Part shown: in pieces, positions 2,905-46,112 of the stretch
How the letters are laid out: every line of letters begins with the position of its first letter
Position numbering within the stretch: the stretch's first letter is position 1
Origin: Antedon mediterranea
Lineage: Eukaryota > Animalia > Echinodermata
Assembly (NCBI RefSeq): GCF_964355755.1
Contig: NC_092674.1
Location: 17,484,001-17,548,000, forward strand
Direction: 5' to 3'
DNA: 64,000 nt
Notes under the pieces: generated by a model
Told to the model about the DNA's origin: nothing
What the model saw: the letters and a program-made list of their open reading frames with translations, nothing else
The model's database searches: none
Program-made: the position numbers and the translations under genes

Positions 2905-2930
2905 TTTTGACATAACTAGTTACTATGGCT

Positions 2931-4289
2931 CACACTCGATTCACCAGGGACAAAAAGTAGTGAGCCCTCTATCGGCAGCGAATCGTTTTTGCACACGAGA
3001 CAGCGTGGACAATTACCCGGAAGCAACTTTGTTTTGAAAAGTAAATCTTAGGTTTTTGCAAACTGGCCAATTGGAACTTTTGGTTTTATTTACTAATGAA
3101 TAATTCATGAAAACCTTTGACAAGGCATCTACGAACCACGTGATATTGTTTTTTAATCGACGAACCCATTATATTTGTGTGAAACAAGGGTGAATTACAC
3201 CGATGTTTTTTAAACAATTTTAGGCTATTCGAATGTTAAAATTTCGTCTAATTTGTTGAGGCTGTAATAAAACAACGCAATTTTTTGAGAAGGTGGGTTT
3301 TATAGTTTCTGAATATTTGATTTTTCAATAAAATCTCGTTGGGGTTATTTTTTATTTTTTTTTAATGGCTGCTTAAACATGTGCCTTCTTGGGTATTTCA
3401 CTATTGAAAATGGAACACATGGTTGTAGCTAAAATCATTTTTTACGCCATAAGATAAAAAATGTGGTTTTGTAAATTAATAAGGGCAACATATATATAGG
3501 AAAGCTGTTTTTAATCATAAAACTCTACAAAGCCTCTTTTTTTAGTCGCGTGGAAGCGACTCTATAGTTCACTATGTCGGTCGGTCGGTCGGTCTGTCTG
3601 TCTGTCTGTCTGTCGGTCTGTCTGTCGGTCTGTCTGTCGGTCTGTCTGTCGGTCTGTCTCTCTGTCTGTCTGTCGGTCCGGTATCACTATGCGTTTTATC
3701 GCTTTCTGACCTTATCTTGATATCAGTTTAATCTAGCTAGGTCAATTTTTCACAGTATATTCCTTATGGCCAGAAATAAATGTGGTTATGTTTTCACGGT
3801 GCGCAATAAAAAATTACGCGGTCTACGCACGATTTAACGAAATCACGTTTGTAATCATATCTTCACAACCATGAATCACAATTAAATAAAATTTGGTACT
3901 CATAAATTTCAGGGCATAAAATATCATCATATGGCAATACAATTACGTGCGTAGCGCATGTAACGCATGCGTACGCGCGCTTAACATTTTCAAAATTTAT
4001 TTTCGATGAAATAAGAGTACATTTCAGGCAATTTTAAGCGTTTACAAAATTGCCATGAGTGCGCATATTTTTGCGCGCGCACTGCGCGTTAAATGTTATT
4101 GCGCACTCTTTTTGCCCGATTTCTGTTTTCTTGACTTACTTTTCAACTCGAAATTACGTTATACGAGCACGTCGAAAGTGACAGGCTACGCACGTGTAAA
4201 TTAAAAAAAATTAATGTTTTTAAACATTTCAACATTTTTAATCATGTTCAGTAATTTCGGTCAGTATAGTTCACTATGTCGGTCGGTCG

Positions 4290-4320
<31 letters not shown>

Positions 4321-6102
4321 GGTCTGTCGGTCTGTCTGTCGGTCTGTCGGTCTGTCTGTCGGTCCGGTATCACTATGCATTGTAGCACGCGACTTAATGG
4401 CTGTTGGCCTTGTTTATTTATAAATCAATATAGTCTAGGCCTAGTAGTACAGTAGGAGAGCCAGGCTTTAGCCTATAATAGTGGGGTAGTGCGTGCATTA
4501 TTGGCGCGTGTTCATTGTCTGGCGCGCGTTGTTTATAGGCCTAAGAAAATAATTAAAATATACAAATATAATTAAATAATGATTATTATTAATTGAATGT
4601 TGTTTTTTTTTTACAGACCACAGAGGATTGTTCTACATACTTCAATACAAATAGCATTAAATCAACAACAATTTCTTATGAGTCATATTAATTTACCTCT
4701 GGCATATAATGTGAAAAAGCACTACAGTATTAATACTGTAATAATGGATATCTATAGATGTATTGCCAAAAAGACATTTTATTTTTTAAAAACTTTAACT
4801 TATCCTAATTTACTTATTTAAAGGTTCAAGTGGCGGTTGGTTGTTGTGCAGTAGTTTAATAAAGTTTAAATGTACATTTCAAATCGGCAAATAAATAATG
4901 GTAATAGGGTACTACAGTAAAGAAAATCTTTTGAAGATTAGGCTTAGTACAAAAGATGTTAGCTAAGTTGATGTAGATAACTTGTTGTCTGATTTTTAAG
5001 GTGAAATTTTTGATAATATTAAAAGTTAAAATGTTAACTGGTGTGTATTTGTATTTCATTTATTGCTCCATTATTATAATGAAAAGCAGGGAACCATGAC
5101 ATTTCATTTTAGCTCCGATAAAAAGTAAACATTTTCAGCATATACTGTACTTAAATCAATCATATGTTAGTGACAGGTGACATTAACAGATTTATTATGA
5201 GATTACTAGTAAGCCTACTAGTAGGTTTAGCTCTATTCACAAAAATAATGACATTATATACTGTACATTAATTAATTAGCCTAGCTAGGCCTAACTAATT
5301 TACTGATTTTTCAGTATTTTACCAAGTCAACCGTTCAGGCATGCAGACAGTCATCACTTCACACTAATCTTCATAATTTTAAGAAAAATGAAAGTTCAGC
5401 ACTTTATTTTAAAATTTATAAGCCCATATTATAAGATTCTGCCTCATCCACTTAACAAGAACTAAAATCGAGAGCCCAGTGATAGAGCGCATCTTCCGAC
5501 GTTCTCGTCGCCTAAGGAAACGAGTATTCCAGCCCTGCCGCGTCTTCCTAGGCCTACGCGCACCGCACTTTCGCTCAAAATACACTATTTTCAACTCCTT
5601 ATAGAATTTGTTTGAAAAATAACCCCAAGCTTATATTTGGAAATCTTTGAAAATGCATATAATACTATATTATAGCGTTTTCAGAATTTCATTTAAAAAT
5701 TGCAAATTAATGTTAGTTATTTTAACACATTAGTTAGTTTTCACTTTTTTGTTTTCGCCGTATGACTCACTTTGTTTACGTTTACACTTGACTTAGACGT
5801 TTATCTTAGAATTCGAATCAATTAATCCATAATCAACTAAAATTGCTATTGTTGTGGTTTTTGTTTAATATAAATGTTCTTAATAAACAGAAATAAATCA
5901 AACAACAATATAATTTAATATAAACCCGTTAAAAGGGAAATTTAGACAACCTATAAAAACACGGAAGTCAGAGCTCGCGTCGCTCGAAATGCTCGGGAAC
6001 TTTCTATTTATAGCCAATCGAAAAAGGCTCCGGCTAACTTAAACAATGAAAACGGCTCTCGGAACACTTAATGTCCCATTTTCGCTGTTTGACGTGGATG
6101 TG
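2931..6102. mobile_element. Non-autonomous Chapaev-like DNA transposon with RSS-like ends
   Basis: Termini CACACTC... and ...GGATGTG; perfect 4-bp TSD GGCT (2927-2930 / 6103-6106) in satellite A. CAC termini with a 4-bp TSD are Chapaev hallmarks. No transposase ORF. Left subterminal region resembles 34383-34620. Confidence 0.8.
3542..4414 (+). mobile_element. Long DINE-1/Helentron-like element nested in the Chapaev-like element
   Basis: Starts TTAGTCGCGTG and ends with the inverted subTIR CACGCGACT plus the GGCTGTTGGCC hairpin; two (GTCT/GTCG)n tracts at ~3577-3678 and ~4278-4364; T-rich insertion site. Confidence 0.7.
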
Positions 6103-8075
6103 GGCTCTATAAGATGATGTTAACACAATATATGTGCATAAATGGCAATATTATAGTCTCTTTGTGAGACTTGCTCCTTCAGTCAGTATTTTTAAATCAC
6201 GACTGAAAGCCCATCTGTTCTCATCCGGTATTAATTAATTTATTCATTCATTCATTTACTCCTTCCCCGAAACCTTGACTCAGAAATACCGGGATGGTGT
6301 CCGGCGGGGGATAGTTTAACCCTAGCTTAAGTTGTGCATGCTTCATTTACTCTCTATTCTTAATTCTGGCCCCGAAACCTTGACTCAGAAATACCGGGAT
6401 GGTGTCCGGCGGGGGATAGTTTTACCTTAGTTAAGCATAGTTAAGCTTTGTTACATTTTTTTTTTCACATTATTGATTGTCTCCATCCCCGAAACCTCGA
6501 CTAAGAAATACCGGAATGGTGTCCGGCGGGGTATAGTTTATTACCATTAGTTAAGGTCCTATGTAAAGCACCTAGAGGGGTCAGTGATCCATTAGGCGCT
6601 ATATAAATACTGTTTATTATTATTATTATTAATTATTGAATTTTAAAAGGTGGAAATTTTGGTCATTTTCGACCCTTTTATATTTTGACATAGGTAGTTG
6701 CTATGGCGGCTCTATAAGATGATGCTAGCACAATATATGTGCATAAATGGCAATATTATAGCCTAATTATAGAATTTAAAAAATTGGAAATTTTTTCCAT
6801 TTTTCGAAAAAATTCTTATGGTCCCCCGCAGGGAAATTGTCGCAAAAATGGCGAAATTTCAAACCTTTTATTTTTTGACATAACTAGTTACTATGGCTCT
6901 ATAAGATGATGTTAACACAACATATGTGCATAAATGGCAATATTATAGTCTAATTATTGAATTTTAAAAGGTGGAAATTTTGGTCATTTTTTGAAAAAAT
7001 TCCAGTGGTCCCCCGCAGGAAAATTTTCAAAAAATAGCAAAATTTCGACCCTTTTATTTTTTGACATAACAAATTACTCTGTCTGTATAAGATAAGACAA
7101 TATATTTGCATAAATGGCAATAGCATAATTTTCGAATTTTAAAAAGTGAAAAAAAATCTTATGGTCCCCAGCAGGGAAATTTTCGAAAAAAGGCCAAACT
7201 TAGACCCTTTTATTTTTTGACATAACTAGTTACTATGGCTCTATAAGATGTTGTTAGCACAATATATTTGCATAAATGGCAATAGCATAAAAATTTTTCG
7301 AAAAATGGCCTAATTTCTACCCTTTTGTTTTTTGACATAAATAGTTACTAATTTTCGAAAAATGGCCAAATTTTGACCATTTTATTGACATTATGGCTCT
7401 ATAAGATGATGTTAACACAATATATGTACATAAATGGTAATATTATAGCATAATTTTCGAATTTAAAAAAAGTAGAAATTTTGTCTATTTTTCGAAAAAA
7501 ATTCCTATGGATCCCCGCAGGGAAATTTTAGGACAATGGCCAAATTTCGACCCTTTTATTTGTTGACATAACTAGTTACTATGGCTCTGTAAGATGATGT
7601 TAGCACAATATATTTGCATAAATGGCAATATTTTAGCATCATTTTCGAATTTTAAAAATTGGAAATTTTGTCAATTTTTCGAAAAAATTCATATGGTCCC
7701 CCACAGGAAAATTTTCGGAAAATGGCCAAATTTCAACCCTTTTATTTTTTGACATAATTCGTTACTATGGCTCTATAAGATGATGTTAGCAAGTGGCAAT
7801 ATTATAGCATAATTATTTAATTTTAAAAAGAGGAAAATGTTGCCATTTTTCGACCCTTTTTTGACATAACTAGTTGCTATGTCTCTATAAGATGATGTTA
7901 GCACAATATATGTGCATAAATGGCAATATTATAGCATAATTATTAAATATTAAAAAGTGGAAATTTTCGAAAAATGGCCAAATTTCAACCCTTTTATTTT
8001 TTGACATAGTTCGTTACCATGGCTCTATAAGATGATGTTAGCAAAATATATCTGTATAAATGTTAATATTATAGT
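6103..8075 (+). repeat. Satellite A array (continued)
   Basis: Same unit as 1220-2930; interrupted by an L2 fragment. Confidence 0.93.
6159..6630 (+). mobile_element. 5'-truncated L2-clade LINE 3' end
   Basis: Encodes the C-terminal FKSRLKAHLF motif (~6190-6220); ends GGCGCTATATAAAT..(TAT)n, typical of L2 3' tails; the 3' UTR has three copies of a ~46-bp GC-rich motif. Confidence 0.75.
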
Positions 8076-11000
8076 TTTTATGTACCGACATCGACCAAGT
8101 TTTTACGTACAGACATCAACCTCGATTTTACGTATAGAAATCAACCCCGATTTTACGTACATACATCGACCCCAATTTTACGTACAGACATCGACTCCGA
8201 TTTTACGTACAGACATAGACCTAGTTTTACGCAGCGACATCGACCTAGACTTTACATACAGTCATCGACCCCGATTTTACGTACATACATCGACTCCGAT
8301 TTTACATACAGACATCGACCCGATTTTACGTACAGTCATCGACCCAGTTTTTACGTACAGACATCAACCTCGATTTTACGTACCGACATCGATCCCTATT
8401 TTACGTACATTCATCGACCCCGATTTTACGTACAGACATCGACCCCGATTTTACGTACAGACATCGACCCGATTTTACGTACAGTCATCGACCCAGTTTT
8501 TACGTACAGACATCGACCTAGTTTTACGCACCGACATCGACCTAGACTTTACATACAGTCAGCGACCCCGATTTTACATACAGACATCGACCTAGTTTTG
8601 ACGTACAGATATCGACCCCGTTTTGACGTACAGACATCGACACCGATTTTACGCAAAGACAACGACCCCGATTTCACGTACAGACATCGACCCCGATTTT
8701 ACGTACAGTCATCGACCCAGTTTTTACGTACAGACATCAACCTCGATTTTACGTACCGACGATCCCTATTTCACGTACATATATCGACCCGTATTTATTA
8801 ACAGACATCGACCTTGTTTTTACGTACAGACATCGACCCCGATTTTACGTACAGACATCGACCCGATTTTACGTACAGTCATCGACCCAGTTTTTACGTA
8901 CAGACATCGACCTAGTTTTACGCACCGACATCGACCTAGACTTTACATACAGTCAGCGACCCCGATTTTACATACAGACATCGACCTAGTTTTGACGTAC
9001 AGATATCGACCCCGTTTTGACGTACAGACATCGACACCGATTTTACGCAAAGACAACGACCCCGATTTTACGTACAGACATCGACCCGATTTTACGTACA
9101 AATATCGACCATGATTTTACGTACAAACATCGACCTAGTTTTTATGTACCGATACCGACCTCGATTTTACGTACAGACAGCGACCCCGATTTTACGTACA
9201 GACATCGACCTAGTTTTGACATACAGACATCGACCCCGTTTTTACGTAAAGACATCGACCTAATTTTTACGTACCGACATCGACCAAGTTTTTACGTACA
9301 GAAATCGACCCTGATTTTACGTACAGACATCGACCCCGGTTTTACGTACAGACATTGACCCCGGTTTTACGTACAGACATCGACCCGATTTTACGTACAG
9401 TCATCGACCCAGTTTTTACGTACAGACATCGACCTCGATTTTACGTACAGAAATCAACCCCGATTTTACGTACATACATCGACCCAGATTTTACGTACAG
9501 ACATCGACCCCGATTTTACGTACAGACATCGACCTAGTTTTTACGTACAGACATCGGCTAAATTTTGACGTACAGACATTGACCCCGATTTTACGTACAG
9601 ACATTGACCCAGTTCTTACGTACAGACCTCAACCTTGATTTTACGTACTGACATCGACCCAGTTTTTACGTACATACATTGACCCCAATTTAACGTACAG
9701 ACATCGACCCCGATTTTACGTACAGACATCGACCTAGTTTTTACGTACAGACATCGACCCCGATTTTACGTACATACATCGACTCCTCTTTTACGTACAG
9801 ACATCGACCCTGATTTTACGTACAGACATCGACCCCGATTTTACGTACATACATCGACTCCGATTTTACGTACAGACATCGACCCGATTTTACGTACAGT
9901 CATCGACCCAGTTTTTACGTACAGACATCAACCTCGATTTTACGTACAGACATCGATCCCTATTTTACGTACATACTTCGACCCCGATTTTACGTACAGA
10001 CATCGACCCGATTTTACGTACAGTCATCGACCCAGTTTTACGTACAGACATCAACCTCGATTTTACGTACCGACGATCCTTATTTCACGTACATATATCG
10101 ACCCGTATTTATTAACAGACATCGACCTTGTTTTTACGTACAGACATCGACCCTGATTTTACGTACATACATCGACCTAGTTTTTACGTACAGACATCGA
10201 CCCTGATTTTACAAACAGACATTGACCTAGTTTTGACGTACATATATCGACTCCGTTTTTACGTACCGACATCAACCTCGATCTTACGTAGAGACATCGA
10301 CTCCGACTTTACGTACATACATCGACCTCGATTTTACGTACAGCCATCAACCCTGTTTTTACGTACAGACATCGACCTCGATTTTACGTACAGACATTGA
10401 CCCCGATTTTACGTACATACATCGACCCAGATTTTACGTACTGACATCGACCCCAATTTTACGTACAGTCATCGACCCAGTTTTTACGTACAGACATCAA
10501 CCTCGATTTTACGTACCGACGATCCCTATTTCACGTACATATATCGACCCGTATTTATTAACAGACATCGACCTTGTTTTTACGTACAGACATCGACCCC
10601 GATTTTACGTACAGACATCGACCCGATTTTACGTACAGTCATCGACCCAGTTTTTACGTACAGACATCGACCTAGTTTTACGCACCGACATCGACCTAGA
10701 CTTTACATACAGTCAGCGACCCCGATTTTACATACAGACATCGACCTAGTTTTGACGTACAGATATCGACCCCGTTTTGACGTACAGACATCGACACCGA
10801 TTTTACGCAAAGACAACGACCCCGATTTTACGTACAGACATCGTCCCCGATTTTACGTACAAACATCGACCATGATTTTACGTACAAACATCGACCTAGT
10901 TTTTATGTACCGATACCGACCTCGATTTTACGTACAGACAGCGACCCCGATTTTACGTACAGACATCGACCTAGTTTTGACATACAGACATCGACCCCGT

Positions 11001-14000
11001 TTTTACGTAAAGACATCGACCTAATTTTTACGTACCGACATCGACCAAGTTTTTACGTACAGAAATCGACCCCGAATTTACGTACAGACATCGACCCCGG
11101 TTTTACGTACAGACATCGACCCCGGTTTTACGTACAGACATCGACCCGATTTTACGTACAGTCATCGACCCAGTTTTTACGTACAGACATCGACCTCGAT
11201 TTTACGTACAGAAATCAACCCCGATTTTACGTACATACATCGACCCAGATTTTACGTACAGACATCGACCCCGATTTTACGTACAGACATCGACCTAGTT
11301 TTTACGTACAGACATCGGCTAAATTTTGACGTACAGACATTGACCCCGATTTTACGTACAGACATTGACACAGTTCTTACGTACAGACCTCAACCTTGAT
11401 TTTACGTACTGACATCGACCCAGTTTTTACGTACATACATTGACCCCAATTTAACGTACAGACATCGACCCCGATTTTACGTACAGACATCGACCTAGTT
11501 TTTACGTACAGACATCGACCCCGATTTTACGTACATACATCGACTCCTCTTTTACGTACAGACATCGACCCTTATTTTACGTACAGACATCGACCCCGAT
11601 TTTACGTACATACATCGACTCCGATTTTACGTACAGACATCGACCCGATTTTACGTACAGTCATCGACCCAGTTTTTACGTACAGACATCAACCTCGATT
11701 TTACGTACAGACATCGATCCCTATTTTACGTACATACTTCGACCCCGATTTTACGTACAGACATCTACCCGATTTTACGTACAGTCATCGACCCAGTTTT
11801 TACGTACAGACATCAACCTCGATTTTACGTACCGACGATCCTTATTTCACGTACATATATCGACCCGTATTTATTAACAGACATCGACCTTGTTTTTACG
11901 TACATACATCGACCTAGTTTTTACGTACAGACATCGACCCTGATTTTACAAACAGACATTGACCTAGTTTTGACGTACATATATCGACTCCGTTTTTACG
12001 TACCGACATCAACCTCGATCTTACGTAGAGACATCGACTCCGACTTTACGTACATACATCGACCTCGATTTTACGTACAGCCATCAACCCTGTTTTTACG
12101 TACAGACATCGACCTCGATTTTACGTACAGACATTGACCCCGATTTTACGTACATACATCGACCCAGATTTCACGTACTGACATCGACCCCGATTTTACG
12201 TACAGCCATCAACACCGTTTTTAGGTGCAGATATCGACCCACTTTTTGACGGACCGAAATCGACCCCGTTTTGAGGTACAGACATCGACCACGTTTTTAC
12301 GTTCAGACATCGAACCCGATTTACAGTACAGGCATCGACTCCGATTTAACGAAAAGACAACGACCCCGATTTCACGAACATACATCGATCCCGTATTTAC
12401 GTACAGACATTGACCCCGATTTTACGTACATACATCGATCCCTATTTTCCAATTTTACGCAAAGACAACGACCCCGATTTCACGAATAGACATCGATCCC
12501 GTATTTACGTACAGACATCGATCCCGTATTTACTTACAGACATCGACCTAGTTTCTACGTGCAAACATCGACCCCGATTTAACGTACATATATCGATCCC
12601 GATTTTACGTACATACATCAACCTCGATTTTACGTACCGACGATCCTTATTTCACGTACATATATCGACCCGTATTTATTAACAGACATCGACCTTGTTT
12701 TTACGTACATACATCGACCTAGTTTTTACGTACAGACATCGACCCTGATTTTACAAACAGACATTGACCTAGTTTTGACGTACATATATCGACTCCGTTT
12801 TTACGTACCGACATCAACCTCGATCTTACGTAGAGACATCGACTCCGACTTTACGTACATACATCGACCTCGATTTTACGTACAGCCATCAACCCTGTTT
12901 TTACGTACAGACATCGACCTCGATTTTACGTACAGACATTGACCCCGATTTTACGTACATACATCGACCCAGATTTCACGTACTGACATCGACCCCGATT
13001 TTACGTACAGCCATCAACACCGTTTTTAGGTGCAGATATCGACCCACTTTTTGACGGACCGAAATCGACCCCGTTTTGAGGTACAGACATCGACCACGTT
13101 TTTACGTTCAGACATCGAACCCGATTTACAGTACAGGCATCGACTCCGATTTAACGAAAAGACAACGACCCCGATTTCACGAACATACATCGATCCCGTA
13201 TTTACGTACAGACATTGACCCCGATTTTACGTACATACATCGATCCCTATTTTCCAATTTTACGCAAAGACAACGACCCCGATTTCACGAATAGACATCG
13301 ATCCCGTATTTACGTACAGACATCGATCCCGTATTTACTTACAGACATCGACCTAGTTTCTACGTGCAAACATCGACCCCGATTTAACGTACATATATCG
13401 ATCCCGATTTTACGTACATACATCGACTCCGATTTTACGTACATACATTGACCCGATTTTACGTACAGTCGTCGACTCCTATTTTACGTACAGACATCGA
13501 CCCCGATTTTACGTACAGACAACGATCCCGTATTTACGTACAGACATCGATCCCGTATTTACTTACAGACATCGACCTAGTTTCTACGTACAAACATCGA
13601 TCCCAATTTAACGTACATACATCGACCCCGATTTTACGTACATACATCGACCCCGATTTGACGTACATACATCGACCACGATTTTACGTACAGACATCGA
13701 CCCCGATTTTACGTAAATACATCGACCCGATTTTACGTACAGTCATTGACCCAGTTTTTACGTACAGACATCGACCCCGATTTTCCGTACAGGCTTCGAC
13801 TCCGATTTAACGTACAAACATCGATCCCGATTTTATGTATACACATCGACCCCAAATTTACGTACAGACATTGACCCCGATTTTACGTACAGACGTCGAC
13901 CCCGATTTTACGTACAGACATCGACCTAGTTTTTACGTAAAGACATCGACCCTGATTTTACATACAGACATCGACCTAGTTTTGACGTACAGACATCGAC

Positions 14001-16795
14001 CCCGTTTTTACAAACATATATCTACTCCGTTCTTACGTACAGACATCGACCTAGTTTTTACGTACCGACATCAACCTCGATTTTACGTAGAGACATTGAC
14101 CCCAATTTTACGTACATACATCGACCTCGATTTTAGGTACAGACATCGACCCCGATTTTACGTACAGACATCGACCTAGTTTTGACGTACAGACATCGAC
14201 CCCGATTTCACGAACAGACATCGATCCCGTATTTACGTACAGACATCGATCTCGTATTTACGTACAGACATCGACCCCGTTTTTACGTACAGACATCGAT
14301 CCCTATTTTACGTACAGAAATCGACTTCGTTTAACGTACCGACATACAGACATCGACCTAGTTTTTACGTACAGACATCGACCTAGTTTTTACGTACAGA
14401 TATCGGCCTAGTTTTTACTTACAGACCTCGACATAGTTTTTATGCAATGAGAGCGACCCCGACTTTACGTACAGATATGGACCCCGATTTTATGTACACA
14501 CATCGAGCCAGTTTTTACGTACAGACATCGACCACGTTTTTACGTACAGACACTGACCACGTTTTGACGTGCAGACATCGACCCCGTTTTTACGTACAGA
14601 CATCGACCTAGTTTTGAACTACAGACATCGACATCGACTCTGATTTTACGTATAGAAATGTACCCCGATTTTACGTACAGACATCGACTTAGTTTTCACG
14701 TACAGCATCGACCCTGATTTTACATACATTCATCTACCTAGTTTTGACGTACAGACATCGACCCCGTTTTTACATACAGATATCGAATCCGATTTTACGC
14801 ACAGACATTGACCCTGATTTCACGTGCAGACACCAATCCCGTTTTTACGTACAGGCATCGACCCCGATTTAATGTATAGACATCGACCCCGATTTTACGT
14901 ACAGACATCGACCCTGATTTTACATACAGACATCGACCTAGTTTTGACGTACAGACATCGACCCCGTTTTTACAAACATATATCTACTCCGTTCTTACGT
15001 ACAGACATCGACCTAGTTTTTACGTACCGACATCAACCTCGATTTTACGTAGAGACATTGACCCCAATTTTACGTACATACATCGACCTCGATTTTAGGT
15101 ACAGACATCGACCCCGATTTTACGTACAGACATCGACCTAGTTTTGACGTACAGACATCGACCCCGATTTCACGAACAGACATCGATCCCGTATTTACGT
15201 ACAGACATCGATCTCGTATTTACGTACAGACATCGACCCCGTTTTTACGTACAGACATCGATCCCTATTTTACGTACAGAAATCGACTTCGTTTAACGTA
15301 CCGACATACAGACATCGACCTAGTTTTTACGTACAGACATCGACCTAGTTTTTACGTACAGATATCGGCCTAGTTTTTACTTACAGACCTCGACATAGTT
15401 TTTATGCAATGACAGCGACCCCGACTTTACGTACAGATATGGACCCCGATTTTATGTACACACATCGAGCCAGTTTTTACGTACAGACATCGACCACGTT
15501 TTTACGTACAGACATTGACCACGTTTTGACGTGCAGACATCGACCCCGTTTTTACGTACAGACATCGACCTAGTTTTGAACTACAGACATCGACATCGAC
15601 TCTGATTTTACGTATAGAAATGTACCCCGATTTTACGTACAGACATCGACTTAGTTTTCACGTACAGCATCGACCCTGATTTTACATACATTCATCTACC
15701 TAGTTTTGACGTACAGACATCGACCCCGTTTTTACATACAGATATCGAATCCGATTTTACGCACAGACATTGACCCTGATTTCACGTGCAGACACCAATC
15801 CCGTTTTTACGTACAGGCATCGACCCCGATTTAATGTATAGACATCGACCCCGATTTTATGTACAGACATCGGCCTAGTTTTTATGTACAGACATCGACC
15901 TAGTTTTTACGTACCGACATCGACCTCAATTTTTCGTGCAGACATCGACCCCGATTTTACGTACAGACATCGACCGCCTTTTTACGTACATATATCGACC
16001 CCAATTTTACGTACAGATATCGACCCAGTTTTTTCGTACTGACATCGACGCCATTTTTACGTACAGACATCGACCTAGTTTTGAACTACAGACATCGACT
16101 CCGTTTTTACGTACAGACATCGACCCTGATTTTACATACAGAAATGTACCCCGATTTTACGTACAGACATCGAACCCGATTTTACGTATAGACATCGACC
16201 TTGATTTAACGTACAGACATCGAACCCGTTTTTATGCGCAGACATCGATCCCGTTTTTACGTACATAAATCGACCACGATTTAACGTAGAGACATCGACC
16301 CCGATTTTACGTACAGACATCGACAATGATTTTACGTACAGACATCGACCTAGTTTTCGACCTACAGACATCGACTTAGTTTTGACCTACAGACATCGAG
16401 ACCGGTTTTACGTACAGACATCGACCCTGATTTTACATACAGACATCGACCTAGTTTTGACGTACAGACATCGACCACATCTTTACATACAGACATCGAT
16501 CTTGTTTTTTAAGTACAGAGATCGATCTAGTTTTTACGTACCGACTCGACCCCGATTTCACGTACAGACATCGACCCCCTATTTACATCGACCTAGTTTT
16601 TACGTACATACATCGACTCCGTTTAACGTACCGACATCGACCCCGTTTTTACTTACAGACATCGACTCCGTTCTTACGTAAAGACATTGACCTCAATTTT
16701 ACGTACAGACAGCGACTCCGATTTTACGTACAGACATCGAGCCCGTGACCTACAGACATCGACACCGATTTTACGCAAAGACAACGACCCCAATT
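8076..16795 (+). repeat. Satellite B: 25-bp tandem array (TTTTACGTACAGACATCGACCCCGA)n, ~8.7 kb
   Basis: Directly visible 25-bp periodicity; all ORFs here are repeat translations (TYRHRPRF / ILRTDIDP / FYVQTST). Confidence 0.97.
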
Positions 16796-25510: not shown

Positions 25511-26613
25511 GAAATTTAAAGTATTAAATTATAGTTTATACGCAGCACAAGTACTTTCTTTTAACTAAGGATGTGGTATATAAATGTGGGTAGATTTCAG
25601 AGTAACAGAAGTGTTAGGATGAATGGTATATTGTTTCTACAGGTAATTAAAAAGTGAATGTTAGTCAAGGGAGACACTTTATCAAAGTTCCAACCACAGT
25701 AATTGACAATGTAGTTCTATAGACCAACGGGTATATCTAATAGTGGAACCACAAAAATGTAGGATAGGGTAATTTCTAATTGGCAACCAATGGGAATTCA
25801 GAGTGTTTAGTTGATTACTAAGAGGCATACTAGCACACCTCATTGTTAAATTAGCCGTTCAATAGTTGTACAAACTTTTCAATCGTTGTGGATATATTAC
25901 TGTGGATATATACTTTGTGGATATATATTACTTTGAATCTCAGTACGATCAATTTTCCATATCATAGCCTTTGTTCTATAGTAGGAATCGTTCAACCTTC
26001 ATCAAAACGTTCATCTTACTTGGATTTATACAACTGTTTATTGTATCATTTTTGTTTATTGTGCGTATTTAGTACATTTCAAGCGAATCTGTTATCAATT
26101 TATTTGAGACACAATTTCATTTATTATTCTTCAACGGCAGTTTTCATTAATTTTACTGATATTATTAAAATGGCTATAACAAGAAGCAAACGCTCAACGC
26201 CGTATGATAAGGGAGTTTCTAATTGGTCTGTAGCGAAACTAAAAGGAGAACTAAAAAAACTTGGAATTGTACACCCATCTCAAGCCAAAAAGGCACAGTT
26301 GGTGCGCTTATTCAATGAATCTGCTATTTTTCGGCCAGCAATCGAACCTCAAGTTGCCTAGATTAGAAATCCTACAAACAGGGTACTGATCGACTTAGTT
26401 TCTAAGTTGTCTACAACAGTACAAAATCTGCAACAAAATGTGGCATCATTGACATAAACAGTGAGTTCGTTGAGCTCTCAACAACAGCCTGCAGTTGGTA
26501 GTCCTTCACCAATCAATAGTAATGCCACTAGCTCTAGGGCAACGACAAGTGAGGACATCACACTGGAGCCATTCTCCATTCGTTCAGCATTTCGTAGCGA
26601 AAATAAATAACTA

Positions 26614-27787
26614 TGCTATGTTTGGTGTTTTAACTGTTTTAATATGGAGTATTAAGGAGAGCGTAGGTGCTAGCACGGTAACAAATAGCGGGGAGGTGTG
26701 GCCATTGTTAACGTACAGCAGAGAATTTCTCTTAAGTAGACGTGACTTAAATACTACACATTCCTTTGCAACAGGTGCGTACTCAAACATTAACAAAACA
26801 AAGAAAAGAAAAGGAAACCAAAGAGGAGGCGTTAGAGTTCGATTAAAGAAATTAAAGCATAAAACCCCACTGCCAACAGTTGTTTTTGGTAATGTACAGA
26901 GTATAAGAAACAAAATAGATGAACTAAGAGCGAACGTAAAGTTCTTAACGGTTTTTCGCGAGTCGAGCATGATTTGTTTGTCAGAAACATGGCTGACGGA
27001 TAATGATCCAGATTCCTCAGTTGATCTTGACGATTACACATTGATTAGAATGGATAGAAATGAAAATTCAGGTAAAAACAAAGGAGGTGGCGTGTGTGCT
27101 TATGTAAGTGAAAAATACTGCAAGCCATCGCATATCACTGTAAGGAGTGAAGTATGTAATAAGGACATTGAATTGCTTGCGATTGATATGCGCCCGTATT
27201 ACCTCCCAAGGGAGATACATCAAGTGAAGGTATTTGTGGTCTATATCCCACCATCAGCAGACATTAATATAGCAGCAACAACAGTATATGATCTCATTTC
27301 TGAAGCAGAAAATAATTCGCCTGAAGCAGCTAAATTCATCATGGGGGATTTCAACTCATGTTCATTAAAAGAATACCTACCTACATACCAGCAATATGTT
27401 GATTGTCCAACTCGCAACAATACGTGTATCGACCTTTGCTATGGAAATATTGATGGTGCATACAAGTGTAAAGCTATGGCGGGTCTTGGCAAATCTGACC
27501 ACAATATGATCAGCCTCATTCCAATATATAAAACCCGTCTTCGTGATAAACCCTCAAAGAAAATAAAGGTAAAACGTTGGACTGAGGAAGCCAGCGAGAC
27601 CCTTAAAGGGTGTTTTGAATGCACAAACTGGGATGCATTAAAGGAAAATGCAGAAAATTTGAGCGAAGCGACCCTCGTTGTATCCGAATACGTAAGATTC
27701 TGTGAAGAAATGATTATACCTGTATCAAAAAAAAAAAAAAATCAACAATCATGCCCATTCCCAATAAACCAAATCCCAAGGAAATGA
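26614..27787 (+). pseudogene. LINE apurinic-like endonuclease domain
   Basis: NVQSIRNKIDEL, SETWL, GGGVCAYV, VYIPP, GDFN, IDLCY and SDH motifs; frame breaks at the A-run 27726-27741. Confidence 0.88.
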
Positions 27788-28947
27788 ATGACCTTAGACC
27801 CGTGGCCCTTACATGTTTACCAATGAAGTGTTTAGAAAAAATTGTTAAAAGTAAGCTAGTTGCCTCAGTGGAGAATCTGCTAGATATAAATCAATTTGCA
27901 TATCGTCCAAACAGGTGTGTTTATGATGCAGTGCTTCTGCTCCTTAATAACGTTTCTGAGCACCTAGAGAAAAAAGGTTGCTTTGCGAGAATTCTTTTTG
28001 TTGATTTCTCTAGTGCATTCAATAATATTCAACCATATGTTCTGGCTAATAAGCTTATCGATTTAGAAGTTAACCCACTGATTATAAAATGGCTACATAA
28101 TTTTTTAAAAGATAGAGAACAGCGTGTGAAGCTTAATCACACGTTGTCCTCGTTGTTGAAAGTTAACACGGGTGTTCCACAAGGTTGTGTGTTGTCACCT
28201 TTATTGTATACAATATACACAAATGATTGTAAGTCAAATAATACAAAAACTGAGATTATTAAATATGCAGACGACACTGCTCTGATTGGTTATCTGGATT
28301 CAAAAGATGATTCAATGACAGGCTTCTTATACAGTATTAATATTTTTCACAAATGGTGTAAAGATAATTTTTTAGATCTAAATATAAATAAAACTAAAGA
28401 GATGGTTTTTGATTTTCGGAAGAAGATAAACTACCTTCCCAAGATCAAAATCAATGGTGAGACCATTTCGGAAGTTAAAACTTACAAATATTTAGAGGTT
28501 GAAATTGATAATGAACTTAAATTTGATGCAAATAGTAGGTGCATATACAATAAATTACAAAAACGTCTCTTCTTTCTACGCAAATTAAACTCTTTTAAGA
28601 TTGACCGTACTATTTTACAACTTTTTTATACTTCTATCTTAAACAGTGTACTTAGTTTTTGCCTAATATGTTATTATGGTAATTCACGTTTTAAAGATAG
28701 ACTTTTACTTAATAAAATAGTTAAACAAGGCAGTAGAATAGTAGGCTCTGAACAAATTCAACCTGAAGTTTTATATAAGGAATTAGTAATAAAAAAATTA
28801 AAGATTATTTTAAAAGACCACGCTCATCCTCTGCACTATAAATTTAAAAAAAGTCAACGTAGTGACAGACTCCTTCAAAGAAAAATTAAAACAAATAGAT
28901 ATGGCAATTCATTCGTCCCTGCTGCAATACGATTATATAATGGATGA
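27751..28947 (+). pseudogene. LINE reverse transcriptase domain
   Basis: RPVALT, QFAYR, DFSSAFN, GVPQGCVLSP, YADD and KTKEM motifs. Confidence 0.92.
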
Positions 28948-30116: not shown

Positions 30117-30242
30117 ACGACGCGTTTTTCATCAAGGCAGAGAAATCTGCAACAATTATAACGGTGATAGAGGGTGTGTAAAGATAAACTGCAATTTAGC
30201 TCACATTTGCTTGTTATGTAAAGGCGGCCACTCACAGTCAGC

Positions 30243-34382: not shown

Positions 34383-34794
34383 AAATTAAGTGTAGCGCCC
34401 CCAACGTTCATATCGTTTTATGGAGTAGCGATTCCGAAAACATATTGTATACAAACCACACGAGGTACCCGGAAGCGATCAAGCATAAAACGACTGTATT
34501 TTAATAGCCAATAAAAACAAATAAAAACCGCGAAAGCCAGAAAAATAATGAATATTCATTAGAACAACCCTAGATGAAGGTGAAAAAGATGTTGATGTCG
34601 TTTTATCACGTGGATTTTCAGAGGGAATCTAACTGAAAGTTAACCAACATTGTATACTCAACGCCAGTTTTTTTCTCAAGTGATACATTTAAAAAGTAGG
34701 TATAAATTTTTTTTTCCATATCAGTTTAAAAATAATTTTTTCTGTTGAATTCTTTGATTTAGTTGGATACTATAGTTATCCTTGAATGTTTTAA

Positions 34795-36175: not shown

Positions 36176-36887
36176 TTAACAAGGTTCGTATTCATATAGC
36201 CTGGCTGGATTTTTTCCTATGCTAGCTAGGCCCAGGCCCCCTTGCGTGGTTAAAACCAGCTGTGTAAGACTAATGGCTGTGTATTTTTAACAGGTAAACA
36301 TGTCTGTTCTGGGGCCTGAGTGACAGTTTAAAGCTGTTTCTAGTAGGCTAGCCTGGTCCTAATTAATAATAAGGCCTAGCCTAGGACCTAGCTAGGCCTA
36401 AGATATTTTAAAAATCATATTGGGAGGGGAGTTACACTACAGTAGGTCAGGCTACATGCCTATACTATATATAAAATATAGGCTACATCATCAGCAGGTT
36501 AAGGCCTAGCAGCCTACCTAAACCTGTCTTAGTCAAAGATAAGTTCTCGGGGTGTAATATATTAAAAGAAAGAAGCTATAGAGTACTGTGACATTAGATA
36601 TTTAATTATAACAAATGTATATTTCTTTCATATTTGTATTGTATATTTATTATTAATACAGTATTTTGATATGCAATCAAAATCTGAATCAGTATATAAC
36701 ATCAATTTCAATAAATATTTAATATATTAAAACCAAATTAAAATAAAATAACTTCCAAAAATTCAATTACAATTCATATACCATTTGTTAATATTTCCAA
36801 AATCATTGTTCTGGCAATAACAAAAAAACCACTACCATTCATAATATGTACAATACTGTAACAATTAACTGAGTGAGAAATAGCAAA

Positions 36888-39800
36888 CTATTCCTCAACT
36901 TTTCTGCACTTGGGCCTAGTCACCTCATGCTGGATCTCGGGTGAAATAAAAGTCAGATGTGACTTCATGATTGACATAAGCTGGTCAAGGTTGCTCTTTA
37001 ATCCATATACCGCCCTTTTCCGGCGATTAAATTCTGAGTGGATTAATTCGCCGCCTTGCTCAGCTCAGAGTCCAACTCCTACTCTCCATTCTTTCATAAA
37101 CGGTATTGTGTGGTGCTCCAACATGTGCAATTTTGGTTGAATCACATTTGGAGCGATGCGTCTGTATTCTTTGGAGAACAGTTGTATGTAGGTTTCTGTT
37201 TTGTGAAAAAATTGTTTTTTTAAATTTTAACATTTTATTTGAAAGATGTATTGTCTTTTGAAATGACAAAAAATCATGAATTAAATTTTAATGTAACAAG
37301 AAAGTTTATAAATGAGAATTTAAATTATACAGATGTTAATCACACATTAAGAATAAATAAAACCAGACAAAATTCACATTTTTTGGTCATCAGTTTTTGC
37401 TTACCATATTGATCTATTTCTGAATCAGTGATGCGCCTAGTATGGTTTATGCATTCATGGACAATAGTAAAGGTTTTGAATACAGGTGTAAATGATTCCT
37501 GTATCTTGTGCAATTTTGTTTCAAGCAGTTGCTTACAGTTTGTAGGACAGTGATGTATCTGTTGCTTTAAAGTCATTGAGACACCATCCATGAGCTTTTC
37601 TATGATGTTGAACTAAAAATAAAATGAATAGTTTAAAATAAAACATTTACAGTATGGCGAGAGTCAATCGCAAATAATTCTTAATTTTATTACTAATTTT
37701 GCTGTGTAAAAATTAACGAACTTCACATTTTAGGAATTTTAGTTACTCACTTTGCATGCTCTGTATACATGGTTTCCCACAAAACTCTTTCCGTGGTACT
37801 GCTGTCGAGGAATTTTATTTTTCCTCAACACCTCGTCCATTTTTGTACATAGAGGTCCAGTTCCAAATTTTATCTCTTGGTTCATAGTACTTCGGTATAT
37901 AAAATATAAAAGAAATATAGCATTAATTTTTATAGTAATGTATTGTATGTTTTAGACATAATTTTAAATTTTAAAGGTGTATACTGTAGTACTGACCAAG
38001 TCTTTGACCTCTTGTTCTTTCAGATTTATTATGTGGCCAGTCTCTGCAATCTCTGCAATCTTGTTATGCTGTTTTGTCACAAGTGACACTGAGAGCTCGT
38101 TTCTTAAATCCTCAAGATTCTCTTCTAAAGACTGGATTAATTTTAATCATTGTAGCATTTCGATGCGCTGCAGCTTCTGATATGCTTTTCTCAAAGTCTG
38201 CTAGATGATCACCTGAGATTATACAATATTGGTCAATCGAATAAATTTCAATCTGCATCAAAAATGTGCATCAAAATTAGTATATTTAAAAAATGTTAAT
38301 GATAATATGGATAATTCATAGAAAAATAAGTTTCAGCCAAAGGTTTGTTTATTATGCATAAAAACAGGATAAACAATTTCGAAATTTACTGAATTCTATG
38401 CGGAAAGGGACAATGTATATTTAAAAAGCAACTTGACCAATTGAGTTTATTTAATGTCAATGTAAAGTTGAAACAACATTTGAAGTTACCAGTCAAGATG
38501 TCACCATCCTGTCGCATGTTAAAAATTATAACATCAAGATTGTGCACGTCTTTTTCCAGCATATCATAGAGTTTTTTAAACAACCCAAGAGAAATGTGTA
38601 ATGCTGGTATTGACACCTGGAAAAATAGTTGATTGAGGAAATATTTAATAAAGAGGTATATTTATAAATTACTGTAACAATTGTTTGTTTTGACAGTTAT
38701 TTTATACTAACATTGTTATTTAATATGGAAGTACAAACACACATTTCATTGTTTGGAGTGTGTATTAAACTTTCTAAATTGAGATTTTAAATAATTTTGA
38801 ATTTAACCTAACATAAACACTGGGGACCTGTGCTGTTATGATTATTTACCTACCCTGTTTAATTCGATGTCTACCAGGTATGGCCTAACAACGCTGTGCG
38901 ATATTGTTTTGCTTTTTTTTTGTCACTCCCATGGTCTACAAAAGACTTGTAGTCACGATTGTAGGTCTTGAGACATCTACAGGCTTAAGGAACATTGTTG
39001 TTTCTAATGTCATCTTGATTACAAAAACAATAGATGCAACTGTACTTTCCTTTAAAAAAAATCAATTTTTAAATCTACATAATATATATAGTACTTCAGT
39101 TTTGTGTAACAAATGCCAAACAATGAGAGCTAATAGCCAAAATATAAAAAAAAAATTGTATTGAAACTGGAAATTGTACTTACCATTTGGGCCAACAAGT
39201 CCATATACCTTTGACAAAAAATCATAATCCCCAAAAAAGAATAGGCGGATATTTTGAGTTCTGTAAAATGAGAAGTTATTTTCATTCAATTACCATGAAT
39301 TCTAATTAATTACATTAATCATAATTAAAGATATACAAATTATGTAAAATTTTCAAATTAAGTTGCATATTATAATTATGTAGCTCTGCTATATACTTAA
39401 GTCAGTGTTACTCATTCCAATATTATACTACTGTATTTAATATTACTTTTTGGTCTTTGGTGAGGTCCACTGGTTTTCATCTAAATCCATGACTTCATCA
39501 AGAACCAGTTTCAAGCCTTTTTCGACATTAACTATAAAATCTGGTGCTTGGAATGCAAAAATGACAATAATATTGTGCTGTGCATTGGGTTTAGGTAAAC
39601 TGCAAATTTGAACTTCAAATTTAGTGGTATCACCACCCTTGTCTCCTCCAAACTTGAGAAATATATCTCCATCTTTGAAGAAGTTCAATTCATCAGACCT
39701 ACAAAATTTAAAATTGCTTGATTATTTTGTTAAAAAATTAAATATAATTTAAGTCTTCCCTGACTAGATGTGTAATTATTTGTGTACAGCCAAATCAAAA

Positions 39801-42800
39801 CCAGGCATTTGTCGTAAATGTGACATTTTGAGTTTTATAGGTATTTGTACAGAGCACATAATTTGCTTTAAAATACTGAAAAAATTATTCAATTTGGTCA
39901 AGTATTTTTAGAGTTATGATACAATAAGTAAAGAAATACAAGTAAGAATTCATTTTTATTTAGCAGTGAAAAATGCATTCAAAGATAAACAATAGTTCAA
40001 ACAGGAAGTTTAAATGTGCTGGCAGACAGCGACTCATGTTCACCTTGACAACGCTAACTTCTAGTATACCTATGACTTTGAAATTTAGCACAAATGTAAC
40101 TAATACATTTTTCTATAATCATTGAAATTTTCAAAGAAATCCAGTAACATTAACATTGTCAAATGAGACTTCAAATAACAACATACGTTAGTACACTTTT
40201 TTTTACTAAACTTATGATTGTTATGTGTGAGGCTTGTAATAACTATAAATAAGTACTATAAATAAGTACTATTAATAAATTTAAAAAATACAACACATAG
40301 AAATGAACCAAAATTAATGATACACAGACAGTTGATTGTGTTTGATGTGTTTAAATTTATTTACAATTGGTACACTTTAAATTATAACATTTTGGTCATT
40401 TCAGGCTGCGTGTTACAACAGTATTATCATCTTTTGTGCCGGGTCATTTAAATACATTCATATTTTTCGATACAATTATTTCACGGTTTTATTCAGGGTT
40501 ACGTTGCATAATAGAATACATGTGTCATGTATCATCAGAATCAAAGTCATTTTTGTAAAGTTATATTAAGCACCGTATCACCATTATTGGAGTTGTTTGA
40601 GAAGAGAAAGTAGCAACAGCATCACCACCACTGTCAAAACTATTGTATTGGTATTACATTACAGTATTACCAATCAAGATCTGAAAACAGAATGAAAAAT
40701 TAAATTAAACTTTTTTAAACACATTTAAAAATCTTTTTTTTTTTGGGCTAGGCCTAGACCAAGGTATGCTAGGTGGTTTTACTAGGCTAACTTGAAGTAC
40801 TAAGCTGGCATACAGTTCATCTCTTATCTTATGCCTAGGCTAGGCCTAATATTTTGATCAAAAGTGTTTCTGTGTTCACCAAACTGAGTGTGTTGCGCTA
40901 TAAAGTCATTTCGTACTTTCTAACCTCTTGTTGTTTATGATTCGCTAGCGAAGCCAATATTTCTACTTTTCATATTATATAAATCATTAAACTATTCCAT
41001 GTTGTTTTAGTATTATCTAGGATGCATAAATAGCAAGTATGAATTAATATTGAATGTTTTTTACAGTAAGAATGTTTTGTTAAAACCTTACCGCTTCCTC
41101 AGTGTACTTTGAATAGCTGTTAAAGGCAAATTTAACGCTTCAATGACTTGAGCCACTCTGTTAGCCAATCAAATTGCCTGTTTCAGGATTCCGTAGCAAC
41201 AAGACTGGTTTGCTTATACCAAAAGGTTATTAAAGAATGTGTTTGATTGGCTATACTATTATTTTACATGACCTACAACCTTTATCTTTGGAAAGATTTT
41301 TTCACGAGCTTTCTAAAAATACCACACATTAAGGGGTCTTCTCATAATCAAAGAGGTAAAAGTTGGTTAGAAATAGACACAAATTACAGAATAGAACTTG
41401 ATTTTTTCACCAAAGACGAAAAAGGGGGTCTCATTAAAATGTTATTTTCATTGATTTATACTTATAATTTCTTTAAAATACATAGATTTTTGGAATCTAC
41501 GGTAAATTTTCTGTAAGATTATTTAAAAAACTAAAAATGGTCAAGATATAGGTTTTACACATTCAGAAGCATTTTACAGAAATCCCTTGCTGCCGACAAA
41601 CGCCTGGTTTTGGTTTGGCGGTACACATTTTATTCTTGTATTTATACCAAATGCGATCTATTATAGTATATATAATTTGTGCCAATGATACAGTACTGAT
41701 GTATGAAATAGGTTTGTTTAAAAAATAACAACAAAAAATATTACATACATATCATATTTGTTTAGGTAGTCATAGATTAGTTCTTTGATTTTGGTTAGTC
41801 GGACTACTGCAACCTCCTCCAAAACAAGACCTCCTATAGATGTGGCTCCATCTCGTTTGACAAACATGTATTCCATAGAATCTACTATGTGATCACCGAT
41901 AATCTGTTCTTGGCAAATGCGCATTTGCCTTTCAGAAGCCAAAACTCCTGGGCAAAAAAAAATGTATATACAGTACTGATTAATTATAGTTTTTATAGTT
42001 TTCTATAGTATTCTAAATTCAATTTAAAAAGAAGTAAACTGTTGACTGAATAATAGTAAACAGTGGCTGTGTGGCCCGACGGAGGTCCACATACCCGACA
42101 CGAAAAGCAATAATAAAATAAATTACCTCCGCAGTGCTCGTTGCTGGCTCCAATTTATGCGGCAGGCATTCATGATTGCCAAACATCTTTGGGGGTCCAT
42201 TTTCTCTTCAGTACTTGTAACACTAACAGTTGTTGTGCACTCCGATTGTTTAACAATGTTTATTGGCTGAATTTGATCAAATAAAATATTTGTATGATTT
42301 ATCAAATAATAATGTATATGAGTGGATCAAGAGTGTAGGCCTACATTATGATAAATTTAAATTAATTGTAATGGGTTAAAAACTCACCCGTCCTCGAGTC
42401 ATAAGTGACACTTTCTTATTATTCATAAGGTCTTTCCGTACTATGTTGTGTGCCATGCTTTTCAATTCTTTTGGCCAAACCTCATTTGTTTGGGCAGTAC
42501 ATGTAATTTCTTCAACTGCACTTAAAATGTTGGTGAATGCCTGTTCTTTAAACGTTTTGCAAACATGATTGGGGGTTTCTGACCAAACTAATTGAATGTT
42601 ACATTGTTTGCATTGCAAAGGGACTCGTTTAAGCGATTGTTCTACAATAAGTGGAACTGGTTTGAGATCTTGGTCACTGACAATTTTGCTGCAGTTAAAA
42701 CAATCAATTGATTCTCGTCCTACTGCCTTAAACAATTTTTTTATGCAAAATGTACAAAAAAAAATGTTGACAAGATGTCTGTTGGCTGTCAATTGACAAC

Positions 42801-43186
42801 AAATTATTGCATATCTGACTTTCATACACTTGATTATCGTAATTTTCAAAAATTTTAAATTGAGGATTTAGTAGCAAGTGCTCATGGGTGGGAATAAAAC
42901 TGCCAGTAGTAGTGCTTCTGTTTTCGGGAAACTTGCATTTCTTCAGCCTTCGACCAGGTCTTGATTGTTGACTGAATAAGTAGCAGGCTAAGCATTTGTC
43001 TCCATGGTCTTTGAAATTAAATGGTGTTATGTTGTGTCCACCAAGTGCGCTAACGTGACAGCTTGCACATAGCCACTTAAGATTTGGATCCAAATTATAT
43101 TCATAAGTGTACTTTACATCTTTTATTTTAAATTTTTTTCCGCAACAGTAGCAAAGGGAACTTAATGCCCTTTCGTGAAACTCCAT
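36888..43186 (-). pseudogene. Intron-containing Chapaev transposase: Chapa Zn finger, RING, Zn finger and DDE core
   Basis: Approximate exons: 43186-42388 (H-x7-CYCCG..CASC..H..CLAC..GRR; RING ICNNLL..SCQHFF/CTFC..CFNC with a frameshift ~42760; CKQC..H), 42266-42127 (PINIV..CLAIM), ~41947-41749, 39698-39447 (GGDKGGDTTK), 39260-39184 (GDYDF..YGL.G), ~39050-38855 (CIYC), 38616-38490 (PALHISLG), ~38213-37997, 37889-37751 (QQYHGKSFVGN), ~37612-37405, ~37196-36888 (KLHMLEHH; EQGGELIHSEFN). GT-AG junctions are visible; several stops and frameshifts. Confidence 0.8.
39782..41626. mobile_element. Non-autonomous TIR element, Sola1-like, inside a transposase intron
   Basis: ~33-bp TIR GTGTAC(A/C)GCCAAA(T/C)CAAAACCAGGC(A/G)TTTGTCG; 4-bp TSD ATTT (39778-39781, 41627-41630), which fits the Sola1 AWWT preference. 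Confidence 0.7.
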
Positions 43187-44431
43187 TACTGTATATGAAA
43201 TAAAATATAATATAAAAAATATTAAATAAAAATAGCTCCGCAGCTTATCTGTGAAATATATTTGTAATTGTATGTGTAATTTTTATAAAGGCCTATAATA
43301 GTATAGTTACAGTAATGACTGTCACTCAGTCACACCAGCTAGCCTAAAAATGCACCAGAAAAGCAATAATTATTATTATAAACACATGCCATTAATTATT
43401 TGATAACAGTTATAATGATTAAATTTAGGATTAGGATAATTAAAGGTTTTACTACTACGAATTTTCTATGTTTGGGCCTAGCTTCATCCTAGGCTTACAT
43501 TACTGTCAAGTTTATCGCCGGCGTCAACGCACTTTCTAAGCCTATCGCCAAACCGTTTTCTCGCCGTTCACAATAACAATGTATAAAGGGGTTGCAAAAT
43601 ATGCGAGTTTTACTAAAAACTGAACCAGGCTATATTAACATAACTTGTATTATTTTATTTATATAATAATGATGGCCTATATTCTAGTTCGTTCTTTTTC
43701 TAAAAAAATGAATTATATCCAAAAAATAAGTTAAGAATACAATGATATTTTCTACTTACGATTGTTTACTATTTCATTACACAGTTTATATCGACTTCCT
43801 GGTTTATGTGTGGGAGATTATTTCAGTAAAATGGACAATATCGTCGTTTATTTATTAATTTATATTAAAGAAACAATAAAATATTGATTTTTTAATTGAA
43901 CATAAACTTTTTTAATCGTTTGGTTTTGTATAAAATGTGTTTTCTACATAAAAACTAACGGTAGCAAAATTTGATTTGGCGTTCGCGAAATAATGGTTTG
44001 TAAACAAAATTCATAAGTTCGCGCGGATCGGAGAGCGTCGTCTGCTAACACTGAGGGCGCTTTACTTTTTCTGATATCTTAACACTAGTTGAAACAGCTG
44101 TGTTGTCGAATTTTCAAAATTGGAAATTTTGTCAATTTTTCGAAAAAAATTCATATGGTCTCCTGTAGGAAAATTTTCGAAAAATGGCCAAATTTCGACC
44201 CTTTTATTTTTTGACATAACTCGTTACTATGGCTTTATAAGATTATGTTAACACAATATATGTGCATAAATGGCAATATTATAGCCAATTATTGAATTTT
44301 AAACGGTGGACATTTTGGTTAACGTTAGCAAAATATATCTGTATAAATGGCAACAGTATAGCATAATTTTCGAATTTTGAAAAGTTGAAATTTTTGCGAT
44401 TTGTCGAAAAATTTCCTATGGTGTCCCGCAG

Positions 44432-45879: not shown

Positions 45880-46112
45880 GTCCCGCAGGAAAATTTTCGA
45901 AAAATGGCCAAATTTTGACCCTTTTATATTTTGACATAACTAGTTACTATGGCTCTATAAGATGATGTTAGCACAATATATTTGCAAAAATGGCAATATT
46001 ATAGCATAATATTTGAATTTTAAAAAGTGGAAATTGTTTCCATTTTTCGAAAAAATTCCTATGGTTCCCAGCAGGGAAAATTTCGAAAAATGGCCAAACT
46101 TCAAACCTTTAA

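Follow-up and report, generated by a model that had tools for sequence, protein, structure and literature searches.

The two unlike ends of a 3,172-bp non-coding element exemplify a design that is family-wide in the Chapaev DNA transposons (CMC/CMCT clade): the geometry is that of V(D)J recombination signal sequences (RSS), and the sequence resembles them only partly. The element occupies positions 2931-6102 of the window, that is, the whole 64,000-nucleotide stretch of Antedon mediterranea contig NC_092674.1 (17,484,001 to 17,548,000) that was analyzed. There is little doubt in our minds that the element is a Chapaev, and the short/long asymmetry of the ends is, with equally high confidence, a selected trait of the family.

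The element carries CAC…GTG termini and is located inside a 187-bp host satellite. Its short end (2931..2958, plus strand) consists of the heptamer CACACTC (2931-2937), a 12-bp spacer, and the 9-mer ACAAAAAGT (2950-2958). Its long end (6066..6102, minus strand) consists of the heptamer CACATCC (6102-6096), a 21-bp spacer, and the 9-mer ACATTAAGT (6074-6066). An earlier note on this DNA had given the same coordinates, heptamers, spacers, and 9-mers, and the CACA-N6-TCA that it described at both ends was found as well, together with the GGGACAWWAAGT block at a 9-bp offset. The tetranucleotide GGCT, which had been named as a duplication of the target site (TSD) 4 bp in length, is present on both flanks (plus strand, 2927..2930 and 6103..6106). 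The window contains 59 empty 187-bp monomers, most of which read TATGGCTCTA with one GGCT, and these prove the ends and the 4-bp TSD. The fifth flanking base is mismatched (TGGCT versus GGCTC). The element was also rightly called non-autonomous: a Chapaev profile detected no transposase remnant in it (best E 0.65), and its longest stop-free frame has 74 codons. No further copy of its family was present in the window or in the 83 Chapaev loci described below.

Within the element, an insertion bearing a (GTCT/GTCG)n microsatellite is nested in a T run on the plus strand at ~3543..4413 (boundaries approximate). It is presumably Helentron/DINE-1-like, and kin copies lie near 2212, 2700, and 46107. 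On the minus strand at 6005..6018, ATTGG (reverse CCAAT) and TATAAATA make up a CCAAT/TATA-like motif. Judged from these motifs, the promoter probably lies at the long end, which would then be the 5' end, consistent with the long 5' end in element A, a coding Chapaev of the same window. A 29-bp subterminal repeat is present in two copies at 6015..6071 (minus strand), and the TTAAGT part of the 9-mer recurs 29 bp further in.

Taken alone, the RSS likeness of the element is modest. A block shared between the ends at 10/12 positions arose at any offset in 3.3% of shuffles (p 0.033), and of 20,000 CAC pairs drawn at random, 737 had one. Among 716 control CAC sites, a match of at least 7/9 to the RSS nonamer was seen at spacer 12 for 3 sites, and for 21 when all RSS-like spacers were allowed. 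CAC together with a nonamer having A at positions 5 and 6 was found at the left end only, the right end having T at position 5. Measured against RSS spacers of 12±1 and 23±1, the 12/21 of this element leaves the long end 1 bp under the range; element A has 13/23. The significance of the RSS-like ends comes from comparison across families and not from a single element.

For this comparison, 83 Chapaev loci (designated by L numbers) were assembled, namely the best 80 of 109 confirmed metagenome loci and three loci from a genome scan. Terminal repeats and TSDs were looked for in the DNA around each transposase, which allowed both ends to be assigned in 11 families and a single end in a further 11 loci. 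No end was obtained for most of the 83 loci (best 80 of 109 plus three); the loci beyond those assigned were truncated or redundant or had no end that could be identified. The resulting end set comprised 36 ends, and the pair set comprised 13 pairs from the 11 metagenome families, element A, and the 2931-6102 element. Both ends of L004, the 5' end of L005, and the 3' end of L075 had been picked with the inner motif and were excluded from the non-circular tests. A perfect 4-bp TSD was found in 6 of the 11 metagenome families (L031, L042, the L044 family, the L062 family via L029/L073, L067, and L075) and was absent in L004, L005, L012, L021, and L057. Among viral contigs, 31 pattern matches to Chapaev were obtained, none of which was confirmed. 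Three loci (L081, L082, and L083) are Chapaev transposase genes in bacterial MAG assemblies, and the 360-kb contig that holds L082 shows a Chapaev-type 5' end; these genes are probably due to contamination by eukaryotic host DNA.

All 13 pairs combined a short with a long end, at offsets of 9-13, and neither short/short nor long/long pairs occurred. The short/long spacers were 12/22 in L005, L012, L021, and L031, 12/23 in L057, L067, and L062 (11 in copy L029), 11/22 in L044 and, with a weak short 9-mer, in L042, 13/22 in L004, and 11/24 in L075. Over the 36 ends, short spacers measured 12 bp (16 ends), 11 bp (5), 13 bp (1), and 15 bp (1, poor), so that 22 of 23 fell at 11-13. Long spacers measured 22 bp (7), 23 bp (4), 21 bp (1), and 24 bp (1), with 12 of 13 at 22-24. 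The 21-bp spacer described by the earlier note is the shortest of the 13 long spacers, 11 of which are 22 or 23 bp. The transposases of the paired families are only 26-65% identical. In a tree of 35 core sequences, one clade (bootstrap 83) has a short 5' end wherever ends were found, whereas the short end is 3' in element A, L004, L005, L007, and L012; polarity flips between clades, and the pairing of short with long stays. Two distinct Chapaev families, both short-5'/long-3', were observed 3 kb apart on one contig (L067:3315-7828 and 10807-14482).

The position profile of the ends showed CAC at 1-3, G at 5, GTTT at 8-11 (partly owing to selection for single ends), low information at 12-18, and then the 9-mer. 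The CAC-led terminal element that had been noted as a heptamer is conserved over ~11 bp (CAC-n4-GTTT), not over 7. The family 9-mer is (A/G)CA(C/T)TTAGT (RCAYTTAGT); of the 36 ends, 31 have T at RSS position 5 and 28 at position 6. Because this is the family 9-mer, the agreement with the RSS nonamer at 7 of 9 bases that had been noted at the 12-RSS position, and that does exist in the left end, is an outlier: ACAAAAAGT was found there and in L054, and it is the geometry that is RSS-like. The two terminal 11-mers of the 2931-6102 element are identical at 6 of 11 positions, and both depart from the family block. L009 showed a terminal match at 10/11 positions without the inner motif.

A de novo motif search of the 36 ends with no position prior returned CAYTTAGT, with the best site at 20-22 in 12 ends, at 30-33 in 13, and elsewhere in 11. 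When sites were located by motif first, the distances to the upstream CAC over 50 sites, redundant copies included, peaked at 11-13 and 22-23. A matrix was trained on 12 ends of six non-host families, whose spacers had been assigned with the motif in view. Applied to the 2931-6102 element, it placed its best sites at spacer 12 on the left (score 3.2) and spacer 21 on the right (score 7.2). Checked against chance on held-out, non-circular ends, it put 17 of 20 best sites at spacers of 11-13 or 21-24, compared with 21% of 4,000 random CAC sites (p ~2e-9, the families being related and the counts not wholly independent). The misses were L007, L079, and the 5' end of element A. Over the whole end set, 4 of the 36 ends (the 5' ends of L042, L057, L079, and element A) had a 9-mer of poor quality or in the wrong place. 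A weaker and underpowered test of the offset per pair gave 9 of 12 pairs at 9-12 against a null of 0.35. It is very improbable that the inner block is a chance or host-factor motif, such as a GCGCCC(C/T)C box, and its RSS resemblance coincidental. The modest single-element statistics would fit such an origin, as would the recurrence of AAAAGTAGGGCGCCCTC in an unrelated element at 63618, but the bimodal spacers across many families go beyond chance, it is the 9-mer and not the GC box that recurs, and the held-out matrix test largely refutes the idea.

Element A is located at 34385-44102, with its 5' end at 44102 and its 3' terminus deleted in the window copy. Its transposase gene (~36880..43189, minus strand) contains introns and encodes a Chapa zinc finger, a RING, and a DUF1280/DDE core. 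The gene contains a frameshift, located near 42760 within a run of A, and a nested insertion at 39778-41626. The latter, which we assume to be Sola-like, has 34-bp inverted ends and an ATTT duplication; another nested insertion was observed at 34790-36175. One exon of the gene is 93% identical to Antedon mediterranea protein P0001, which has a RING and DUF1280; the identity points to a feather star (Crinoidea) as the likely host. The long 5' end (44064..44102, minus strand) consists of the heptamer CACAGCT, a 23-bp spacer, and the 9-mer AGAAAAAGT. At the other end, the 9-mer AAATTAAGT is retained (34383..34391, plus strand) and the outer ~20 bp are lost. Loose ends restored this 3' end in each of 4 runs (three organisms, different flanks); in all four, the intact end starts with CACAGCTGTT and has a 13-bp spacer (counted by hand) ahead of (G/A)AATTAAGT. 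The terminus at 44102 is backed by the satellite, which resumes there, and by a contig joint from 44102 to 34473. Contig joints also revealed internally deleted derivatives of element A, e.g. from 36400 to 43850. The search for a TSD pair of element A in the window gave no result because the 3' terminus is deleted.

The inner blocks of the two ends of element A match at 16 of 21 positions at offset 10, and its 5' block matches the left block of the 2931-6102 element at 15 of 18 positions at offset 11 (0 of 5000 shuffles). Element A was nevertheless rejected as the direct parent of that element, since internal similarity is nil and the terminal 11-mers differ. No cognate transposase was found for the 2931-6102 element, with which element A shares no internal sequence.

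Three satellites (187/132-bp, 25-bp x340, and 87-bp) fill much of the window and harbor the transposons (1223-25500, 32900-34400, and 46433-51147). A large Academ-like element at 52985-63677 is inserted in the 87-bp satellite; its inverted ends read CAGTRGGAAAGCCA, and its ORF set of ~1,700 codons (DUF6589, CXC domain) is broken. Another, presumably MuDR-like, lies in the 187-bp satellite at 44412-45889; its inverted ends are ~70 bp long, and it is apparently flanked by a duplication of 9 bp, GTCCCGCAG. Broken LINE-like endonuclease/reverse-transcriptase ORFs and a DIRS-like reverse-transcriptase/tyrosine-recombinase set were seen at 26474-32344 and 51119-52680. A CTCF-site-like GCGCCC(C/T)C box stands a short way in from the ends of the two Chapaev elements and also of the unrelated Academ-like element (~2964-2970, 34393-34402, 44052-44061, 53060-53068, and 63626-63635); its recurrence in the Academ-like element led us to discard it as a Chapaev-specific motif.

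An assignment of the 2931-6102 element to Chapaev3 was dismissed, as that group requires a 3-bp TWA TSD (PMC4079192) and the TSD here is GGCT. We also weighed an origin from Transib/RAGL, the element being a non-autonomous derivative whose 4-bp TSD is atypical and for which RSS-like ends would be a known trait. There are 12/23-like ends in five Transib families (PMC1131882) and in PflRAGL-A (bioRxiv 2023.08.20.553239), and TSD lengths vary across the Transib lineage (bioRxiv 2026.08.26.747230). RAGL elements exist in echinoderms, and the terminal block of the element is off the Chapaev consensus. However, the TSD is 4 bp and not the 5 bp of Transib/RAGL, the matrix built from Chapaev ends only finds both 9-mers at the right spacers, and the left block has its 15/18 match in element A. 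Moreover, the end of Chapaev locus L054 reads CACGGCC, 12 bp, and ACAAAAAGT, with 9-mer and spacer identical to the left end of the element. Such an origin is therefore improbable.

The Chapaev transposase is predicted to fold like the RAG1 core. An AlphaFold model of the transposase P0005 (pLDDT 86) had RAG1 as its best match (Foldseek E 3e-16) and superimposed on the RAG1 core with Z 25.6 and rmsd 3.8 Å over 463 residues; some alignments, at high rmsd, continued into the nonamer-binding domain (NBD) of RAG1. With a profile built from 32 homologues, the best PDB match was the RAG1 N terminus (E 2.8e-26), and the RAG1 core gave a weak collinear alignment. A GGQP/RGRP-like motif stands at the opening of the segment after the RING, together with three helices. 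The GRPR motif is only partly kept (GGQP/RGQP/RGRP). Among 48,161 chains, the top match of this RING-to-core segment was 3gnb, the RAG1 NBD-DNA complex, collinear over 58 of 68 residues but weak (Z 3.2, rmsd 4.0) and tied with unrelated helices. No sequence match to the RAG1 NBD was found in the segment, and the Foldseek match was not significant (E 7.2). In many Chapaev genes, an intron was observed inside the GGQ/P motif that opens this NBD-like segment, e.g. at L036:2647-2985 and at 42379 in element A.

The short/long design is common to 12 coding Chapaev families (11 from metagenomes and element A), and all 13 end pairs agree with the idea put forward earlier that bipartite ends offset by roughly one helical turn occur in Chapaev, beyond RAG and Transib. 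Because one-turn/two-turn spacing recurs in distantly related families, it is likely that the Chapaev transposase joins one end with an unlike one in a manner similar to RAG. The main, indirect support for unlike-end pairing is that no pair among the 13 has two ends alike, although the spacers have diverged and the polarity has flipped. We consider it probable that the 2931-6102 element is a non-autonomous Chapaev with unequal bipartite ends and that a Chapaev transposase, which would favor a short with a long end, moves it in trans. That the asymmetry would work as a 12/23-type pairing preference, by analogy with RAG, is somewhat the better-favored view.

In the RAG system, the NBD dimer pivots to 12 and 23 and enforces the 12/23 rule (PMC10462144). 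By analogy, a Chapaev transposase acting in trans would place its catalytic core on the outer ~11 bp of each end, and a RAG1-NBD-like dimer might occupy the two inner 9-mers. On a flexible hinge, this dimer could tilt to one one-turn and one two-turn spacer, as in RAG (PMC10462144). Both 9-mers would lie on the same helical face, giving good pairing for unlike ends only. Alternatively, the 9-mer might be bound and helical phase alone be important, each end working with either one or two turns, so that short/long is inherited and not enforced, as in ProtoRAG with its auxiliary distal TIR contacts. TIR asymmetry reportedly has relatively little effect on invertebrate RAGL, and RAG1 without RAG2 is described as having no 12/23 preference (PMC7204232 and PMC8355894); Chapaevs encode one protein, several of their 9-mers are degenerate, and their GRPR motif is only partly kept. 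This alternative appears unlikely, though not negligibly so: it has to account for 13 unlike pairs whose spacer sequences have fully diverged and for a polarity that was reversed at least once, yet left no symmetric family in the sample.

It is possible, but a little short of an even prospect, that the 4-bp-TSD Chapaevs as a group follow a 12/23-type rule, a single-subunit, RAG2-free transposase with an NBD-like domain pairing a one-turn with a two-turn end. Asymmetric bipartite ends would then be older than the divergence of Chapaev and Transib/RAG, and the 12/23 geometry would come from their common ancestor instead of being an invention of the RAG line. The origin of the 12/23 asymmetry is debated, with a "Transib seed" proposed in PMC8355894 and RAGL-A ends by Martin et al. 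(2023). If Chapaev, a third, more distant, and widespread lineage with the zinc finger and RING of RAG1, keeps the one-turn/two-turn design in all families examined, the asymmetry is probably ancestral to the group as a whole and RAG2 unneeded for it. Young multi-copy Chapaevs with near-intact genes are a natural single-protein system for studying unlike-end pairing. Annotators could class gene-less Chapaev copies by their ends, CAC-n4-GTTT … RCAYTTAGT with a spacing of 12 or 22-23.

Among known systems, N-RAG-TP of Aplysia is a mollusc element with a RAG1-N-terminus-like protein and is discussed alongside Chapaev. Panchin and Moroz, writing on it in 2008, reportedly mention RSS-like TIRs. The accessible literature on Chapaev together with RSS, heptamer, nonamer, RAG1, or asymmetric spacers described no short/long bipartite ends, Repbase Reports and Panchin and Moroz 2008 lying outside the search; a prior mention of the asymmetry is possible, though less likely than not. 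Chapaev itself is defined by CAC…GTG termini and a 3-4-bp TSD (PMC4079192), and its domain content is described in PMC4411706 and bioRxiv 2026.01.24.700457. With Chapaev as portrayed there and in PMC12730594, the 2931-6102 element shares the CAC…GTG termini, the 4-bp TSD, and the end design of elements coding for Chapa, RING, and DDE; it differs in being non-coding.

Chapaev ends resemble V(D)J RSS in the CAC-led terminus and in a 9-mer placed at one or two turns (12±1, 22-23), one of each per pair. They differ in the 9-mer (RCAYTTAGT versus ACAAAAACC), in a terminal block of ~11 bp, and in a 4-bp instead of a 5-bp TSD. The transposase shares with RAG1 the predicted core fold and an N-terminal zinc finger and RING, and, unlike the RAG1/2 system, no RAG2 gene was seen for Chapaev. 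Transib was called the only other known 12/23 case in a 2021 review (PMC8355894), and most of its families described in 2005 (PMC1131882) are symmetric. Transib5, Transib2_AG, and TransibN1-N3_AG (PMC1131882) as well as subgroup I Transibs (PMC9435367) are single-gene elements with short/long bipartite ends like Chapaev, but with a 5-bp TSD and CACAATG/AAAAAAATC motifs and without Chapa or RING. The closest end architecture described in the accessible literature is that of PflRAGL-A (Martin et al. 2023, bioRxiv 2023.08.20.553239), which combines a heptamer, an adjacent conserved block (TR2), a 10-bp-asymmetric spacer, and an AT-rich 9-mer, and which differs from Chapaev in its RAG1L-RAG2L pair, its 5-bp TSD, and its intact GRPR/K motif.
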